From assembly GCA_039822165.1 (NCBI GenBank), contig JBCBMS010000017.1:1-59712 (forward strand): a DNA stretch of 59,712 bases, given 5' to 3'. The notes under the pieces are model-generated. The model saw only the letters and a list, made by a program, of their open reading frames with translations, did no database searches and had not been told where the DNA came from. The first letter of the stretch is position 1, and each line of letters starts with the position of its first letter. The position numbers and the translations under genes were made by a program. This document shows positions 8,451 through 42,147 of the stretch, piece after piece. Origin of the DNA: Chloroflexota bacterium. GTDB lineage: Bacteria; Chloroflexota; Anaerolineae; Aggregatilineales; Phototrophicaceae.

Positions 8451-10310
8451 ATGACTGACCAGACCCTGCCACAGAACACATTTGACGCCCCTTATGACGA
8501 GGAAATGGAACGCGCCATTCTCGGTTCGGTGTTGATTAACCCGTCTGTTTTCCTGTCGATTGCGTCGTTCCTCCAGCCAGACGACTTTTTCATTCTGCGC
8601 CACCGTTACATCTGGGAGGCGTTCGGGCACATTTCGTTGCGTGGCGAACCGATTGAACGGCAGACCGTGCGCCGCCAGCTACAGGACATGGACTTCTATG
8701 AGGCCGTTGGCGGGGACGTGTACCTCTCCGAACTGACGAACAGCACCTCATCTGCCATCTATGCCGAACACTACGCCCAGCTTGTGGAGCGCGACGCCGT
8801 GCGCCGCCGCCTGCTCATCGCCAGCGACGAAATCCGGGGCATTGCCACCGACCGCGATAAGTCGCTGGAAGAAGTAATTGGCGATGCGGAAAGCAAACTG
8901 TTCGCCGTCAGTGAGCGCCGCACCCAGCGCGATGTGGTCTCCATGCGAGAGGCCACCAGCCGTTACTTCGAGCGGATTGAGCAGATGATGCAGAGCCAGC
9001 AGCGCGGGCTGGGCCTGCCGACCGGCTTCAAAAAGCTGGACGCGCTCCTGGGTGGGTTGCAGCGCAGTGACCTGCTCATCTTTGCCGGACGCCCCGGTAT
9101 GGGCAAGACGTCGTTTATGCTCTCGCTGGCACTCAATGCCGCACAGCAGTTCGGCGCACGGATTCTGGTTTTCTCGCTGGAAATGGGCGTGGAGCAGATG
9201 GTGCAGCGTATGGTGAGCATGGAAACGGGCATCAACATGCAGCGTTTGCGCACGGGCCAGTTCGAGCAGCACGAGCAGCGGTTACTGGTGGAAGCATTAG
9301 GCCGTCTGAGTACGCAGCGCATCTTCCTGGACGATTCGCCATCGCTGAACCCGATCCAGATGCGAACCAAATGCCAGCGCATCAAGCACGAGCATGGCCT
9401 GGACCTGGTGGTGCTGGACTACATGCAGTTGATGCACGCGCCGGGGTTCACCAACAACCGCGTCCAGGAGATCAGTTACATCAGCCGCCACATGAAAGAA
9501 CTGGCCCGCGAGATGAACGTGCCTCTGCTCAGTGCCGCGCAGCTATCTCGCGCTGTGGAACAGCGTGCAGACAAGCGCCCACAGTTGAGCGACCTGCGCG
9601 AGTCTGGCTGTTTAACCGGGGAGTCGCTGGTGTGGCTGCCAGATGCAGGCCGCTACGAGCGCATGGATGCGCTGTGTGGGCAGTCGGGCTTCCGGGTGAT
9701 GAGCCTGAACCCTGACACTTACAAACTGGAAGCCGCCACTGTAACGAATGCGTTCAGCACCGGGGTAAAGCCCGTGTTCAAGTTGCAAACCGCGCCAGGA
9801 CGCAGTGTGCGTGCCACAGCAAATCACAAATTCCTGACGATAGAGGGCTGGAAGCGTCTGGATGAACTGGTAATCGGGGAACGCATCGCAACCCCGGCGG
9901 ACAGAGCAGGCTCTGTCCCTGCACAGGCGCTCACAATGGCTGTAGGGACGCACAACGGCGCGTCCGCCATGAAAACCACCATACTGCCAACCGACGTGAC
10001 ATGGGCCGCCATTACCGCGATAGAACACGATGGCGAAGAAGCCGTCTACGATCTGACCGTACCCGCACATAGCAACTTCGTGTGCAACAACATCGTCGTT
10101 CACAACTCCATTGAGCAGGACGCCGACATTGTGATGTTCCTGTACCGCGACATTGTGTACAACGAGGCGACCGAATACCCGAACCAGGCCGATGTCATCG
10201 TCGCCAAGCACCGCAACGGCCCCACAGACGTGATCCCACTGTACTTCGACTCCACCATCACGCGCTTTATGGACGGCACGCGGCAGTCCGTGGATTTGAG
10301 CACGATGTAA
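8451..10310 (+). CDS. dnaB: replicative DNA helicase DnaB containing a mini-intein
   Basis: DnaB N-terminal domain, Walker A GRPGMGKTS, Walker B LVVLDYMQL; extein junction RESG|C...VVHN|SIEQDADIV. Confidence 0.95.
   Translation: MTDQTLPQNTFDAPYDEEMERAILGSVLINPSVFLSIASFLQPDDFFILRHRYIWEAFGHISLRGEPIERQTVRRQLQDMDFYEAVGGDVYLSELTNSTSSAIYAEHYAQLVERDAVRRRLLIASDEIRGIATDRDKSLEEVIGDAESKLFAVSERRTQRDVVSMREATSRYFERIEQMMQSQQRGLGLPTGFKKLDALLGGLQRSDLLIFAGRPGMGKTSFMLSLALNAAQQFGARILVFSLEMGVEQMVQRMVSMETGINMQRLRTGQFEQHEQRLLVEALGRLSTQRIFLDDSPSLNPIQMRTKCQRIKHEHGLDLVVLDYMQLMHAPGFTNNRVQEISYISRHMKELAREMNVPLLSAAQLSRAVEQRADKRPQLSDLRESGCLTGESLVWLPDAGRYERMDALCGQSGFRVMSLNPDTYKLEAATVTNAFSTGVKPVFKLQTAPGRSVRATANHKFLTIEGWKRLDELVIGERIATPADRAGSVPAQALTMAVGTHNGASAMKTTILPTDVTWAAITAIEHDGEEAVYDLTVPAHSNFVCNNIVVHNSIEQDADIVMFLYRDIVYNEATEYPNQADVIVAKHRNGPTDVIPLYFDSTITRFMDGTRQSVDLSTM
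9609..10106 (+). other. mini-intein (166 aa, no homing-endonuclease domain) inserted at the RESG/SIEQD site of DnaB
   Basis: Begins Cys (CLTGESLVW), contains TANHKF (block B T..H), ends VVHN followed by Ser; same insertion site as the Synechocystis DnaB mini-intein, recalled from memory and not checked here. Confidence 0.85.
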
Positions 10311-10355: not shown

Positions 10356-10428
10356 GCCCCCGTAGCTCAGTGGATAGAGCGCGGGACTCCTAAGCCCGGC
10401 GTCACAGGTTCGATTCCTGTCGGGGGCA
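10356..10428 (+). tRNA. tRNA-Arg (anticodon CCT)
   Basis: Cloverleaf by eye: acceptor GCCCCCG/CGGGGGC, D-arm GCTC-AGTGGATA-GAGC, anticodon loop CTCCTAA, T-arm ACAGG-TTCGATT-CCTGT; A31-G39 mismatch. Confidence 0.75.
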
Positions 10429-10444
10429 CACGCCACACTTCCAT

Positions 10445-10517
10445 GCATCCGTAGCTCAGTGGATAGAGCGCGGGACGCCTGAACCCGGCGTCACAGGTTC
10501 GATTCCTGTCGGGGGCA
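10445..10517 (+). tRNA. tRNA-Arg-like paralog with non-canonical anticodon loop CGCCTGA (G33, G37) and imperfect acceptor stem; possible pseudo-tRNA
   Basis: Same D/T arms as copy 1; acceptor GCATCCG vs CGGGGGC (1 mismatch + GU). Confidence 0.5.
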
Positions 10518-10530
10518 CACGCCACACTAT

Positions 10531-10603
10531 GCATCCGTAGCTCAGTGGATAGAGCGCGGGACGCCTGAACCCGGCGTCACAGGGTCGATTCCTGTCGGGG
10601 GCA
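10531..10603 (+). tRNA. tRNA-Arg-like paralog (loop CGCCTGA); possible pseudo-tRNA
   Basis: Near-identical to 10445..10517; T-arm ACAGGG-TCGATT-CCTGT. Confidence 0.5.
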
Positions 10604-10615
10604 CACACTTCGCCT

Positions 10616-10689
10616 GCACCCTGTAGCGCAGTGGATAGAGCACGGGACGCCTGAACCCGGCGTCACAGGGTCGATTCCTGTCGAGGGCA
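10616..10689 (+). tRNA. tRNA-Arg-like paralog (loop CGCCTGA), most degenerate copy; possible pseudo-tRNA
   Basis: D-stem GCGC/GAGC and acceptor with mismatches; 3' end CGAGGGCA. Confidence 0.4.
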
Positions 10690-10705
10690 AACGCCACACT
10701 TCCAT

Positions 10706-10778
10706 GCATCCGTAGCTCAGTGGATAGAGCACGGGACGCCTGAACCCGGCGTCACAGGGTCGATTCCTGTTGGGGGCA
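10706..10778 (+). tRNA. tRNA-Arg-like paralog (loop CGCCTGA); possible pseudo-tRNA
   Basis: Same unit as copies 2-3; followed by terminator. Confidence 0.5.
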
Positions 10779-10786
10779 TACACTGA

Positions 10787-10809
10787 ACCGGGTATGCTGC
10801 CCGGTTTTA
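10787..10809 (+). terminator. Rho-independent terminator closing the tRNA array
   Basis: ACCGGG-tatgctg-CCCGGT followed by TTTT. Confidence 0.75.
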
Positions 10810-10856
10810 TTGTATACTCTGGTGACCCGTTATGAACCACAGTAAGGTGATACCAC

Positions 10857-11219
10857 ATGGCCGAAATTGACTGGACGCAGTGGATGAATCAACTTGATCG
10901 ACTGCCGGAAGATGCCCACCTTTCGCGTGCGCAGATGTCTGAGGACGATGTGAAGCTAAAGCAAATGTGGACGTGTGCATTTCCAGACGGGTTGAGTCAT
11001 GCTGAAGTGCTGCAACTCATTCACCTGCTGTACAACGAATATGGGTACGGTTTCAGACCACTCGCGCATGATGTTGGTATCGTGCTCAGGGTCAACTACG
11101 TCTATGTGTTGAATGAAGTCTATGGTGTGCACGAAATTGAACCTGATCCAGAAGTACAGAATAGACTCAGGGTAAAGATGGTAGACTGTGGCTATGTCGA
11201 ATGGATGTCTGAGGAATAG
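10857..11219 (+). CDS. hypothetical protein (AT-rich islet gene 1)
   Basis: 120-aa ORF, lower GC than surroundings, no recognisable motif. Confidence 0.55.
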   Translation: MAEIDWTQWMNQLDRLPEDAHLSRAQMSEDDVKLKQMWTCAFPDGLSHAEVLQLIHLLYNEYGYGFRPLAHDVGIVLRVNYVYVLNEVYGVHEIEPDPEVQNRLRVKMVDCGYVEWMSEE

Positions 11220-11222
11220 ATC

Positions 11223-11423
11223 ATGGCTTTTGAACGAATCACAATCGACCCGGCGAAAATGGGCGGTGTGTCCTGTATACGCGGATTGCGTATACCCGTA
11301 GCAACCGTAGTAGATATGGTTGCAGCGGGGATGTCCACAGATGAGATTCTGGCAAATTTTCCTGACCTCGAACTTGAAGACATTACTGAAGCCCTGCGCT
11401 TTGCATCAGTAGTTCTCCGATAA
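11223..11423 (+). CDS. DUF433 family small protein (antitoxin-like HTH)
   Basis: 66 aa; pattern IRGLRIPV..V.......G.S.DEIL..FPDLELEDI..AL.FA matches DUF433 consensus from memory. Confidence 0.6.
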   Translation: MAFERITIDPAKMGGVSCIRGLRIPVATVVDMVAAGMSTDEILANFPDLELEDITEALRFASVVLR

Positions 11424-11444
11424 TGGTAGTTACCGCAGATCACG

Positions 11445-12101
11445 ATGCACAACATTACTGACAAGGATGACCTTGTAGCTACTATTGAGAAACTGTACGC
11501 GGTATTCAACAAATACCCCTTACGTTCATGGATATCGGGTAATACCAAACAGCGGGCAAGCAAAATACATGCCTTGCGAGCCGTAACGCTTGATGATTTG
11601 TTCGAAAATGATATAGATCACTACTATCTTGATTCGGAGACATTTCGCGGACTGTTTCCACGAATATGTGAAATGATCGCGTTTGAAGATCTACATGACT
11701 TCGAGTTGGGTTACAACTTGAGACTGTCTGTACTTTCTGAGAAGCATTCATGGGAGGATTGGCCGTCAGAGGAACAGGATGCGATCAATACCTATTTGAT
11801 GGCATTGTGGAAATACTTGCCTTCTGTAAAAACGCCAGACTTTGAGCACTTCGTTGAAGTGGCATCAGACATAAATTGCGTGGTCAGCGACCTAACGCCT
11901 TATATAAGGGTGCTTCAGGACAGATGTAGCAATGTTCTGGGTGTCAGGTATCTGGCTGCATGTGTAATTGAAGGTTCTTTTGGCAAGCGCCTATCACAAC
12001 AATCTTTTGTGCTGCCATTGCTTGAAAAAACTTACTATGAACACATTGATACCCCGATAGGTGAAGAAATGGCACGAGCAGTCAATGCCATCGAAAAGTA
12101 G
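11445..12101 (+). CDS. hypothetical protein (AT-rich islet gene 3)
   Basis: 218-aa ORF, AT-rich codon usage, no recognisable motif. Confidence 0.55.
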   Translation: MHNITDKDDLVATIEKLYAVFNKYPLRSWISGNTKQRASKIHALRAVTLDDLFENDIDHYYLDSETFRGLFPRICEMIAFEDLHDFELGYNLRLSVLSEKHSWEDWPSEEQDAINTYLMALWKYLPSVKTPDFEHFVEVASDINCVVSDLTPYIRVLQDRCSNVLGVRYLAACVIEGSFGKRLSQQSFVLPLLEKTYYEHIDTPIGEEMARAVNAIEK

Positions 12102-12138: not shown

Positions 12139-12168
12139 TTGACAACAACCGTCGTGCTGATGTACAGT
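12139..12168 (+). promoter_or_regulatory. sigma70-like promoter (TTGACA-18-TACAGT) upstream of the sugar ABC operon
   Basis: Motif match by eye about 34 nt upstream of the 12202 start codon. Confidence 0.35.
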
Positions 12169-12201
12169 CACGTAAACGATTACATTCATTGAAATTACAC
12201 A

Positions 12202-14190: not shown

Positions 14191-16035
14191 ATGAACAAGA
14201 ACATCCTCCGTATACTGATAATTGTTTCGCTGCTTGCAGTAACCGCGTTCGCGGGTGTATCCGCCCAGGATGACACGATCAAGATCGGCGCACTGACCAA
14301 AAACCTGAGCAACGAGTTCTTCGTCGCAATGGCCAACGGCTACGAGTGGGCCGGTGAGCGTTATGACATCGAGATTGTGGTGGGCAGCACCCCGACTGAA
14401 AACGCCGCCGAAGAACAGCTTGCTATACTCGAAGGCTGGCTGACCGAAGGGGACTTCGATGGTTTTATTGTCACGCCGTTCCGCGCCACCAGCCTGAACA
14501 GTGGTCTTGCCGCCGCGACCGAAGCTGGCATCCCGATCATCAACATGGACGAGATCATCCCGGCAGACGCTGCGGCTGACAGCGGTATCGAAATCGCTGC
14601 CCGCATCTCATCCAACAACGTGCGCGGCGGCGAGTTCGCAGCGAACTATGTTGTCGCCAACGTGGATGAGGGCGCACAGGTGGCCGTGATTGAAGGCGCA
14701 CCGGGCACGACCTCCAGCATTGACCGCGTGACCGGCTTTGCGGATACCGCAACCGCCGGTGGCCTCGAAGTCGTCGCCAGCCAGCCCGCGAACTGGGATC
14801 GTGCTGAGGCGTTCAACGTCGCCACCAACATCCTCCAGTCCAACCCGGACGTGCAGGCAATTTTCGCGGCCAATGACGGGATGGGCCTGGGTGCTGTAGA
14901 AGCGATTGAAGCCGCTGGTATGGCCGATAGTGTGATCGTTGTCAGTGTGGACGCGATTCCAGAAGCACTGGCTGCTGTGGAAGAAGGCCGCCTGGCCGGT
15001 ACCGTGGCGCAGTACCCGGATGAGATGGCTGTTCTGGGTGTGGAAGCCATGCTCAAGGCCATTAATGGCCGCCCGATTGCCCCGCAGATTGAGTCCCCGG
15101 TTGTACTGATTACCGGTGAGAACCTGGACGTGGCAGGCAGCCAGCTTGGTGATGCTGCCATTGGCGAATACAAGATCGGTGGCCTGACGAAGAACCTGAG
15201 CAACGAGTTCTTCCTCGCTATGATCGAAGGGTATGAGATGGCCGCCGCTGACCTCGGCGTAGAAGTGGTGACCGGCAGCACCCCGACCGAAAACGCCGCC
15301 GAAGAACAACTTGCCGTCCTCGAAGGCTGGATCAACGAGGGCGATTTTGACGGCTACGCGGTAACACCGTTCCGTGCCACCAGCCTGAACAGCGGCCTCG
15401 CAACCGCAACTGAAAACGGTACGCCGATCATTAACCTGGACGAACTGATCCCGGCAGATGCTGCGGCTGATAGCGGCCTGAACATCGCGCAGCGCATCGC
15501 GTCCAATAACGTGCGCGGCGGCGAGTTCGCAGCCAACTACGTGCTTTCCGCCGTGGATGCTGGCGCACAGGTCGCCGTGATTGAGGGCGCACCGGGCACC
15601 ACCTCCAGTATTGACCGCGTCACCGGCTTTGCCGATACCGCCACTGCTGGTGGCCTGGACGTGGTTGCCAGCCAGCCCGCCAACTGGGATCGTGCTGAGG
15701 CGTTCAATGTGGCTACCAACATCCTCCAGTCCAACCCGGACGTACAGGCAATCTTCGCCGCCAATGACGGTATGGGCCTGGGTGCTGTAGAAGCGATTGA
15801 AGCGGCTGGTATGGCCGATAGTGTGATTGTCGTCAGTGTTGACGCGATCCCGGAAGCACTTGCCGCTGTGGAAGAAGGCCGCCTGGCCGGTACGGTTGCG
15901 CAGTTCCCGGATGAAATGGCTTACCTGGCCGTTGAGGGTATGATTAAAGTCATCGAAGGCCGCCCGGTTGCGCCGTTCATGGAATCACCCGTGATGCTCA
16001 TCACGTCCGATAACCTCGGTATGATGATGGAATAA
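14191..16035 (+). CDS. periplasmic sugar-binding protein with two tandem, near-identical type-I PBP domains
   Basis: Signal peptide; two ~299-aa repeats each starting IGALTKNLSNEFF / IGGLTKNLSNEFF and ending RP(I/V)AP..ESPV(V/M)LIT. Confidence 0.85.
   Translation: MNKNILRILIIVSLLAVTAFAGVSAQDDTIKIGALTKNLSNEFFVAMANGYEWAGERYDIEIVVGSTPTENAAEEQLAILEGWLTEGDFDGFIVTPFRATSLNSGLAAATEAGIPIINMDEIIPADAAADSGIEIAARISSNNVRGGEFAANYVVANVDEGAQVAVIEGAPGTTSSIDRVTGFADTATAGGLEVVASQPANWDRAEAFNVATNILQSNPDVQAIFAANDGMGLGAVEAIEAAGMADSVIVVSVDAIPEALAAVEEGRLAGTVAQYPDEMAVLGVEAMLKAINGRPIAPQIESPVVLITGENLDVAGSQLGDAAIGEYKIGGLTKNLSNEFFLAMIEGYEMAAADLGVEVVTGSTPTENAAEEQLAVLEGWINEGDFDGYAVTPFRATSLNSGLATATENGTPIINLDELIPADAAADSGLNIAQRIASNNVRGGEFAANYVLSAVDAGAQVAVIEGAPGTTSSIDRVTGFADTATAGGLDVVASQPANWDRAEAFNVATNILQSNPDVQAIFAANDGMGLGAVEAIEAAGMADSVIVVSVDAIPEALAAVEEGRLAGTVAQFPDEMAYLAVEGMIKVIEGRPVAPFMESPVMLITSDNLGMMME
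14263..16020 (+). repeat. ~897-bp tandem direct duplication (2 copies, estimated >85% nt identity) inside the binding-protein gene
   Basis: Repeat units begin near 14266 and 15163; protein repeats nearly identical. Confidence 0.8.
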
Positions 16036-30345: not shown

Positions 30346-31125
30346 TCAATTAGGATCGGTAAATTTTTCTAGTTGTACAAATCCTTCTTCAGGATTAAAT
30401 TTTGTTCCATCCGGCAGAATCGTCTCACCATCTAGTTTGGTGTAATATTCCCTTGGAACCATGTTGCCATCAACGTAACCTGAAATTGTAATATTTTCTC
30501 GTATGTTTGATCCCTTCAGATTACAGTTTTTTAAATTTGTGCCTCTTAAATCCGCCACTATTAAAGCACCCTCTAAATCCGCCCACCACAATCGTGCCTC
30601 TTGTAATTCTGTTCCAATCAACCTCGCGTGTCTCAAGTCTGTTTTAGTCAGATCAGCATTAATCAAATGTGTTTCAAGTAAAAATGTGTCGCTTAGGTTT
30701 GCGTATCTAAAATCAGCCCCATTAAGATTTGCCCCCTGAAGATGATGTTTACCGCTTAACACCCCGTTTGGACCTACTAACAGATTTTCATATTGCATTT
30801 CTTCAACCGCAACTTTAGCCGTTGTGTTATCTCGGCTACCAGCACGCCTGATAAATTGTTGTTCCTTTTCCTTTCTTACGCGGCGACGATTGAGTACATC
30901 TATAATTCCAACTGCTGCAATGATGCTCAGTATCTCCATCAGTAGGCTCATCATGAATTCGTTATTCACGCGGGGTTGACTGCCATTGAATAGAATGAAT
31001 CCAGCAATCAGGCCAATCATCAACATGATGGAACCCCAGAATAGCGGGGTTTCTGTAATCATTTTGATGCCTTCTTTGCGGGCATTATCGGAACGTGCTT
31101 CTGCTGCCTCAAATCCATTTGCCAT
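30346..31125 (-). CDS. membrane-anchored pentapeptide-repeat protein (AT-rich gene)
   Basis: N-terminal TM helices, C-terminal A(D/N)L..(A/T) pentapeptide repeats. Confidence 0.75.
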   Translation of the reverse strand: MANGFEAAEARSDNARKEGIKMITETPLFWGSIMLMIGLIAGFILFNGSQPRVNNEFMMSLLMEILSIIAAVGIIDVLNRRRVRKEKEQQFIRRAGSRDNTTAKVAVEEMQYENLLVGPNGVLSGKHHLQGANLNGADFRYANLSDTFLLETHLINADLTKTDLRHARLIGTELQEARLWWADLEGALIVADLRGTNLKNCNLKGSNIRENITISGYVDGNMVPREYYTKLDGETILPDGTKFNPEEGFVQLEKFTDPN

Positions 31126-40959: not shown

Positions 40960-42147
40960 ATGTCATCCACGCGGCATAATGCCACAAAAAACAGGCACCC
41001 GCCCATGTTCCACATCCCCTACCTGGATACCAACCCCATCGCACAGGCCGAGTACCGACGGCTGCGCCACACCAATACCCTCTCGCGGGGGCATACGGTG
41101 GTGTTTGCGCTGGTTTACCTGCTGATTGTGCTGGTGGCGTTCTCGCCGTATGTCTACTACATCACGCCGCGGCGCGTTAGCTGGCTGGCGGTGATAGCCA
41201 TTGTCGTGTTCGGGTTTCAGGTCTACGTCACGCTGCGCACGGCAGCCGTGATTACGTCCGTGCCACTGCCACAGACCGAGTTACTGACCATCACGCCGAT
41301 GAGCCGCTGGCGGCTGGTGGTGGGCAAATGGTGGGGCGCGTTCAGAACGGTGTGGGTGTGGCACCTGCTCACGGCAATTCCGAAGGTGGGGTTATCACTG
41401 GGCGTGATGAACTATATGCATTTACAGACAGTGTATACAATGCCAGTGTTCACCAACGGAACTTTGCGACTGCTAGCTTTCCCATACATCTACATCAGCC
41501 ATAACTACCATGCTCGACAGATTTATCCAATGGGATGGATAGTTGTAATTGTAATCTTATTCAGTCTGCATTTTGCGATCTGGGATTCTACAATGTTTGC
41601 GGCTATGGCAACTCTCGTGAGTTCTGCTTACTCCAATACACTATTGACACGCTTGCTTATTTTCCGGGGAGTGTTGTTCGCATTTGTGATCTTATCCAAC
41701 CTGACCATCGGATACATCGACCACAATTATATTCGACAGTACAACATAATTCCCTCGTATCACATTCTCAAACAGAATGAATTTATTGAAGAATGCGTGG
41801 AAATCTTCTACAAAGAATACAGAGATGATTGCGCTAGCTGGTATGTCCATAAACAATACACACGCGCTATGGAGACACACCTCATAGCATCCAACTCATT
41901 TATCGACAACGGCATCATGCTACACGCGAATATGATGCGCCCTATCCCATACAGCAAAGTTTCCAGCAGCCAGTGTTTCTGGCTGGAATTGTGTGAGGGA
42001 ACATATGATCCATGGTGGTATGAAACTCTACGAATAAGTCACCTGCAATTTCTGCTGCGGCACATGGCAAGCGCCGCCTACGGGATGTTTCTACACGTGA
42101 TGCTCACGCTGGGGTTTCTGTGGCTGGCGGCGCGGCGGCATCCATAG
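40960..42147 (+). CDS. hypothetical polytopic membrane protein (AT-rich 3' half)
   Basis: 395-aa ORF, multiple TM segments; alternative start 41005. Confidence 0.5.
   Translation: MSSTRHNATKNRHPPMFHIPYLDTNPIAQAEYRRLRHTNTLSRGHTVVFALVYLLIVLVAFSPYVYYITPRRVSWLAVIAIVVFGFQVYVTLRTAAVITSVPLPQTELLTITPMSRWRLVVGKWWGAFRTVWVWHLLTAIPKVGLSLGVMNYMHLQTVYTMPVFTNGTLRLLAFPYIYISHNYHARQIYPMGWIVVIVILFSLHFAIWDSTMFAAMATLVSSAYSNTLLTRLLIFRGVLFAFVILSNLTIGYIDHNYIRQYNIIPSYHILKQNEFIEECVEIFYKEYRDDCASWYVHKQYTRAMETHLIASNSFIDNGIMLHANMMRPIPYSKVSSSQCFWLELCEGTYDPWWYETLRISHLQFLLRHMASAAYGMFLHVMLTLGFLWLAARRHP

Follow-up and report, generated by a model that had tools for sequence, protein, structure and literature searches.

Proteins with a DUF433 domain have been predicted to form pairs with DUF5615 proteins (PMC2701414; PMC5499597). 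The COG4634 partner family is placed within the Mut7-C group of PIN-like domains (PMC5499597), and apart from PIN no conserved partner of DUF433 came to light (PMC2701414). One such pair, VapBC10 of Synechocystis, was shown by experiment to be a working toxin-antitoxin (TA) system: its DUF433 protein neutralises the toxin and also binds its own promoter (PMC3834315). The locus described here lies in a 59,712-nt stretch of DNA from a Chloroflexota bacterium (GenBank assembly GCA_039822165.1, contig JBCBMS010000017.1, positions 1 to 59,712 of the forward strand); this whole stretch is called the window below. Between a tRNA-Arg array and a sugar-type ATP-binding cassette (ABC) transporter operon stands an AT-rich islet of three genes, the middle one of which encodes a DUF433 protein. 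An original prediction proposed that the trio might be an uncharacterised toxin-antitoxin or defence-type module acquired at a tRNA locus. The reading favoured here, with a probability of roughly 0.7, is that the islet is a patchwork of compositionally foreign accessory DNA that holds three unrelated genes and is not a co-evolved module. The open reading frames (ORFs) of the islet and the relic between two of them are as follows.

10857..11219, + strand: ORF of 120 amino acids (aa) with an ATG start, from the ORF list.
11223..11423, + strand: ORF of 66 aa with the DUF433 domain, an ATG start and TAA at codon 67, from the ORF list.
11424..11444, + strand: relic of the ancestral DUF433 C-terminal tail (codons 68-74), now a 21-nt "spacer".
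11445..12101, + strand: ORF of 218 aa with an ATG start, from the ORF list.

The ORF list agrees with the original prediction on three ORFs of these lengths and coordinates on one strand. The tight packing that it described also stands; its spacers of 4 and 22 nt were start-minus-end differences, and the true intergenic gaps are 3 and 21 nt. With these gaps, no internal terminator above chance and good ribosome-binding sites at the first two genes, the trio is probably transcribed together.

The middle ORF was correctly called as DUF433 (COG2442, VapB-type): it matches PF04255 with E = 2e-24 over profile positions 1-56 of 56. Among 5.8 billion proteins, 3535 relatives were found at E<=1e-5, and the best of these, from Anaerolineae and other Chloroflexota, show 80-86% identity and nearly all have a length of 76 aa. 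Set against this full length of about 76 aa in the clade, the 66-aa protein is not full-length. It ends 10 residues short (...VVLR) where the relatives in the alignment run on ...LRERQLPQVxxx. Reading in frame past the stop gives LR(stop)W(stop)LPQIT, compared with LRERQLPQVA in relatives; codons 67-69 are TAA TGG TAG in the window and GAA CGG CAG in the relatives. The relic itself, codons 68-74, reads W(stop)LPQIT against RQLPQVA, as established by in-frame read-through, codon-by-codon comparison with the genes of two related loci (L007 and L010) and DNA alignment. Comparison with the relatives' genes gave pN (nonsynonymous differences per site) of 0.07-0.08 and pS (synonymous differences per site) of 0.66-0.75. 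Because pS is saturated and pN low, the DUF433 domain has been under purifying selection, and because the tail is still readable although synonymous sites are saturated, the stop codons must be recent. Two Logan runs and GenBank GCA_039820705.1, three assemblies independent of one another, have the same sequence for this gene, so the stops are no assembly errors. At the DNA level, similarity to the relatives sets in with the start codon and fades out around codon 74. The 218-aa ORF opens with the next codon of the old frame, an ATG at codon 75; intact pairs have the start of their DUF5615 toxin gene within about 3 nt of this position. Most likely the 66-aa protein continues to function as a small DNA binder, in the role of a solo antitoxin or regulator.

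The toxin expected beside such an antitoxin is missing. The 218-aa protein encoded downstream has no Pfam match and is thus no adjacent DUF5615/COG4634 toxin. A hidden DUF5615 remnant within the islet was considered and rejected: tblastn with two DUF5615 proteins as queries found none in the islet (best E = 0.86, searching the islet alone) or in the 59.7-kb window. The closest DUF433 relatives show several states of the pair. At three loci (L097-L099, P0009, 80% identical) a 76-aa DUF433 gene overlaps a 124-aa DUF5615 / PIN_10 / Mut7-C-type gene by 4 nt. At three others (L007-L009, P0006, 86% identical) a DUF5615 gene lies downstream of DUF433, and this toxin gene (L007, 1623-2024) appears frameshifted after 31 codons. 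Another locus (L010) has a different small gene (1582-1800) in the toxin's place and shares with L097 an Apiosidase ... Pyr_redox ... Asn_synthase neighbourhood, and at the P0016 loci (L100-L102) DUF433 stands alone with nothing downstream. With frameshifted, replaced or absent toxins among the closest relatives, toxin decay is recurrent in the clade. The same relatives, together with the published pairs, bear out the premise of the original prediction that DUF433 proteins usually partner small PIN-like DUF5615 toxins (PMC2701414; PMC3834315; PMC5499597). As judged from its sequence, the window gene encodes an antitoxin that stands alone and lacks its tail, and it is what remains of a canonical DUF433-DUF5615 (COG2442-COG4634, VapBC-type) pair.

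The 218-aa protein has a history of its own. It gave no usable match in Pfam, NCBIfam, PADLOC or PHROGs and, the 120-aa protein having fared likewise in these databases, the original description of both as lacking recognisable domains holds. Two weak matches from these scans, to DUF6508 (E = 0.24) and to a PHROG protease (E = 0.17), were taken to be noise. Apart from a nearly identical partial copy in the same organism, a word-seeded search returned just two proteins, with 40-43% identity. When a profile built from the window protein and these two relatives was run with HMMER against 1.84 billion cluster representatives, 795 proteins were found at E<=1e-3 and 169 at E<=1e-10; this set is called the 218-family here. 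Its members are mostly 240-260 aa long, with a few tandem duplications or fusions to pentapeptide repeats. In a 33-member alignment the window protein has the invariant residues Y18, F21, P72, E110 and W122, and it keeps nine of ten near-invariant positions, the lost one being the conserved cysteine of a CxxC region at position 32. Sequence searches of the PDB with both family profiles gave nothing significant. The structure model is a predicted all-alpha solenoid whose fold matches are generic alpha-solenoids only, none of them viral, and this predicted fold points to a protein- or RNA-binding scaffold rather than an enzyme or a toxin.

Genes of the close subfamily are AT-richer than their surroundings, with a guanine-plus-cytosine (GC) content of 0.38-0.42 against 0.41-0.51 in the four other hosts measured and of 0.43 against 0.57 in the window, which fits a horizontally spreading accessory gene. 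Such low GC would be the signature of recent horizontal spread or of a constraint on composition. Across the five genes (L001, L002, L011, L095 and the window) GC stays at 0.38-0.43 whatever the surrounding GC (0.41-0.57). Pattern scans for the close subfamily in species-representative genomes, JGI metagenomes and viral contigs confirmed no relatives.

Neighbourhoods of the 218-family were compared at 14 places besides the window, out of several hundred. They include two tandem paralogues (L001), a lone gene after a GFO_IDH_MocA oxidoreductase (L002), a gene after a MOSC gene (L011), one between DNA_pol_A_exo1 and TP_methylase genes (L012-14), one between RrnaAD and DUF5698 (L095/96) and one among hypothetical genes (L109). 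The L095/96 and L011 paralogues lie 30 kb apart on the same contig, so one genome has at least two copies. At six plasmid loci (Deinococcus, Chondrinema, Asticcacaulis) the members are annotated "hypothetical protein". DUF433 adjoined a family member in none of the 14, and no recurring partner gene was seen across them. The check for conserved neighbours that the original prediction had suggested thus went against it, the 120-aa protein having no relatives to compare.

The 120-aa protein found only itself among 5.8 billion proteins and has no family match (Pfam, NCBIfam, PADLOC, PHROGs) and no match in the PDB or among viral proteins. It is probably a real gene, given the ribosome-binding site (aaggtga, 7 nt ahead of the ATG), a coding-like GC pattern over the three codon positions (0.62/0.29/0.53) and the shuffling result, an ORF as long as 120 codons arising in just 4 of 5000 shuffles; it may be lineage-specific. 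A single-sequence AlphaFold2 model was weak (mean predicted local distance difference test, pLDDT, 63), all-helical with six helices, and had zero fold matches. Two candidate relationships were set aside: that it is a diverged relative of the 218-family (hhalign probability 0.1%) and a likeness of its motif "FPDGL...LL" to DUF3349 (no Pfam match).

The three genes share a patch of unusual composition. Segment 10857-12101 has a GC of 0.457 compared with 0.571±0.025 (z = -4.5) for 45 non-overlapping windows of equal length from the 59.7 kb. In 300-nt windows GC is 0.42-0.50 from about 10800 to about 12200 and 0.55-0.66 on both flanks, and the lowest-GC 1.2-kb window of the entire 59.7 kb is 10801-12000, at 0.461. 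The dip begins near 10800 and ends near 12200, which delimits a patch of about 1.3 kb; GC falls from 0.59 to 0.46 at the left edge and is back to 0.54-0.59 from 12200. GC at third codon positions (GC3) is 0.53, 0.42 and 0.44 in the trio and 0.68-0.75 in DnaB and the three ABC-transporter genes. The AT-richness first noticed by eye is therefore confirmed by z score and GC3, and a flat GC profile, which the original prediction had named as speaking against it, is the opposite of what was seen.

Signs of mobility beyond composition were scarce. The trio are the only ORFs from the tRNA array to the ABC operon, so there is no integrase, and a repeat search found no direct repeat of the tRNA 3' end flanking the islet; on both counts the original prediction, which saw no integrase and no att duplication, agrees. 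Neither DnaB nor tRNA-Arg nor any islet gene is present in the 6 kb upstream of the 32 closest ABC operons in species-representative genomes, which were located via their ABC ATPase (62-79% identical). With the relatives' operons in other contexts, synteny is not conserved at such distance and no empty site was found. Acquisition at the tRNA locus is accordingly plausible on composition alone: the deviating composition is there, and an integrase, a tRNA 3' repeat and an empty site were not found.

These observations can be joined in a mechanism for the patchwork. A DUF433-DUF5615 locus would have decayed, losing its PIN-like toxin gene, and two recent nonsense mutations have removed the last 10 residues of the antitoxin, with the winged-helix DUF433 domain retained intact after truncation. 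A horizontally spreading helical-repeat gene, that of the 218-aa protein, would have landed or recombined exactly at the old antitoxin/toxin junction, and the relative-less 120-aa gene would be a third, separate component of the patch. A new toxin-antitoxin or defence module, be it the trio or the pair of DUF433 and 218-aa protein, is unsupported, the first partner being a truncated leftover, the second a member of a separate family and the 120-aa protein having no homologue; the three proteins also gave no match to PADLOC-DB 2.0 defence models at E<=1. Three genes with unrelated histories is essentially the outcome that the original prediction had itself named as counting against a module.

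Several points weigh against the patchwork. The 218-aa ORF starts at codon 75 of the old DUF433 frame, about 3 nt from the position of the toxin ATG, which, rather than being accidental, could be the mark of a functional swap that preserved the layout of the operon. None of the three ORFs is disrupted, their packing is tight, and the DUF433 domain has been under purifying selection. DUF433 proteins of 64-67 aa exist in the database, so the short form may be fully functional. The foreign origin of the patch has composition as its sole basis, and the 14 neighbourhoods sampled for the 218-family are few among several hundred.

The alternative that survives best, an unlikely one, is that the entire patch is non-functional, decaying foreign DNA whose ORFs have survived by chance or recency. 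The nonsense mutations in the DUF433 tail, the lost toxin, the first ORF without relatives, the drift towards AT relative to the host and a 218-aa ORF without a clear ribosome-binding site would all be expected of such DNA. Intact ORFs of 120, 66 and 218 codons at 46% GC are not, the first of these being a length reached in so few shuffles, and the first two genes have good ribosome-binding sites. The DUF433 domain is present in full and has a pN much lower than its pS, and the 218-aa protein keeps all five invariant and nine of ten near-invariant residues of its family, Cys32 being lost.

The main rival to the patchwork, yet distinctly improbable, is a toxin swap in which the 218-aa protein would have taken over from DUF5615 as effector, giving a new TA or defence module of two or three genes under DUF433 control. 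The two genes are on the same strand with a 21-nt gap, low GC is uniform over the entire patch, and a tRNA adjoins the islet, accessory modules being often located beside tRNA genes; this explanation survives only because the start codon of the 218-aa ORF falls so strikingly on the ancestral boundary between antitoxin and toxin. It is opposed by the 14 other neighbourhoods, where the 218-family has neither DUF433 nor any other recurring partner beside it, and by close paralogues with housekeeping genes for neighbours, a single genome holding two of these paralogues. The antitoxin tail was wrecked by two stop codons and not adapted, the predicted fold is a generic alpha-solenoid in which Y18, F21, P72, E110 and W122 form no evident catalytic motif, a PADLOC match is absent, and the 120-aa gene is without any relatives.

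The next explanation involves the tRNA array, whose units, with two further features at the edges of the patch, are as follows.

10356..10429, + strand: canonical tRNA-Arg (anticodon CCT), first unit of the array (ARAGORN; Rfam tRNA model, 64.4 bits).
10445-10518, 10531-10604, 10618-10690 and 10706-10779, + strand: four degenerate tRNA-Arg-like units with a period of 86-89 nt.
10785..10817, + strand: terminator-like hairpin (10785-10807) with a T-rich tail, from a consensus scan (10-bp stem, then TATTGTATAC).
12139..12168, + strand: promoter-like site of the downstream ABC operon, TTGACA-18-TACAGT, from a consensus scan (10/12 matches).

The units form repeat family D1 and are 84-96% identical. 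In the minimum-free-energy fold of the first, the cloverleaf acceptor, D and T arms are present. None of the other four folds into a cloverleaf, a perfect 6-bp hairpin GACGCC/GGCGUC forming in its place, and their Rfam tRNA scores are, in order, 47, 41.9, 21.2 and 38.7 bits. The anticodon-loop changes U33G, A37G and G39A, read from the sequence, are common to all four, and an A3.G70 acceptor mismatch occurs in three of them (array units 2, 3 and 5). These units look like decayed copies rather than working tRNAs. The "tRNA array" of the original prediction therefore holds for one canonical tRNA-Arg(CCT), the other four units being degenerate copies. Assemblies of the source organism break at the array, and the variant tRNA-like unit has zero exact matches in metagenome or viral contigs.

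It has to be considered whether the 218-family is an accessory factor of tRNA or RNA damage-and-repair conflicts, its position here by tRNA-like repeats and a VapB-type remnant being functional. In two of the 14 neighbourhoods a family member lies inside a Hen1/Pnkp RNA-repair operon. On plasmid pDFI2 of Deinococcus ficus (NZ_CP021083.1; L107) the order is Hen1, nucleotidyltransferase, nucleotidyltransferase, member, Pnkp, with 4-nt overlaps throughout, and the member (3501-4214 of L107) matches the family profile with E = 1.7e-35. The second place (P0125; JGI 3300071358) reads Hen1_L, 92 aa, member, DUF4291, 118 aa, AAA_33. Hen1/Pnkp RNA-repair operons are rare, so that two embedded members may point to an RNA-related role. 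Other neighbours of the family include the RNA enzymes RrnaAD and DNA_pol_A_exo1, and the predicted fold of the 218-aa protein is MIF4G/HEAT-like; RNA-protein complexes are often bound by folds of this kind. No repair gene is present in twelve of the 14 neighbourhoods, neither Hen1 nor Pnkp occurs in the 59.7-kb window, and the tRNA-like units beside the islet resemble decayed copies and not working tRNAs. This explanation is highly improbable. Least probable of all is the fullest version, in which the family of about 800 members would be an unrecognised RNA-damage/repair accessory factor that here occupies the position of a VapB-type toxin beside mutated tRNA-Arg copies in a new tRNA-centred module.

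The flanks of the islet are as first described, with the tRNA array upstream and, by domain scan, a sugar-type operon of ABC_tran, BPD_transp_2 and a double Peripla_BP_4 protein downstream. The tRNA array is closed by the terminator-like hairpin, which also marks where the low-GC patch begins on the left, and the promoter-like site is close to the right edge of the patch. Directly upstream of the array, the DnaB replicative helicase (8451-10310, + strand) contains a mini-intein, its Intein_splicing domain (residues 396-552) lying within DnaB_C. In the ABC operon, the substrate-binding protein (14191-16035, + strand; 614 aa) has an internal tandem duplication, with two Peripla_BP_4 domains and visibly near-identical halves. 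Relatives of this operon occur in Chloroflexota, in Deinococcota and on an Aggregatilineales plasmid, in contexts that vary, so that the operon itself looks mobile. Two further low-GC patches were seen in the window. One, at 30346-31125 on the - strand (0.467 in a 1.2-kb window), encodes a 259-aa protein that reads like a membrane anchor followed by pentapeptide repeats; the other, at 40960-42147 on the + strand (0.503 in a 1.2-kb window), encodes a 395-aa protein predicted from its sequence to be a multi-pass membrane protein.

Understood as a patchwork, the islet is a small, clear example of the decay of a chromosomal TA locus and of accessory-gene accretion in a low-GC patch by a tRNA. It also carries a caution, that tight spacing and one "antitoxin" domain should not be read as a new module. 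Wider potential lies only in two side products, the 218-family, which has no Pfam model and was found twice in RNA-repair operons, and the degenerate tRNA-Arg array.

Set beside the described systems, the locus resembles each in part. With DUF433-DUF5615 pairs such as Synechocystis VapBC10 it shares a full DUF433 domain, 80-86% identical to the antitoxins of intact pairs in other Chloroflexota, and its host phylum is among those where such pairs are most abundant. It differs in having no toxin gene, in an antitoxin that two nonsense codons have shortened by 10 residues at its end, and in an antitoxin gene that lies 3 nt behind an unrelated ORF, without a promoter region of its own. Among the accessory genes of Pnkp/Hen1 operons, RlaP-type nucleotidyltransferases are known companions of RNA-repair ligases (PMC12776372), and two 218-family members are likewise embedded in such operons; the window copy has no repair genes nearby. 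The resemblance of the 218-aa protein to HEAT, ARM, MIF4G and ENTH-VHS alpha-solenoids is one of fold class only, with identities of 5-11% and no Pfam or PDB profile match. Like tRNA-adjacent genomic islets, the patch consists of low-GC accessory genes directly downstream of a tRNA and between housekeeping operons; unlike them, it spans 1.3 kb only, without an integrase, a duplicated tRNA 3' end or a demonstrable empty site, and the tRNA has been amplified to a five-unit array of mostly degenerate copies. Solo antitoxins and decaying chromosomal TA loci offer a further parallel: the antitoxin has outlasted its toxin, the DNA-binding domain is under purifying selection, and relatives in the same clade have frameshifted or missing toxins. 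What sets this locus apart from them is that an unrelated, intact gene occupies the place of the toxin and starts at the old junction.

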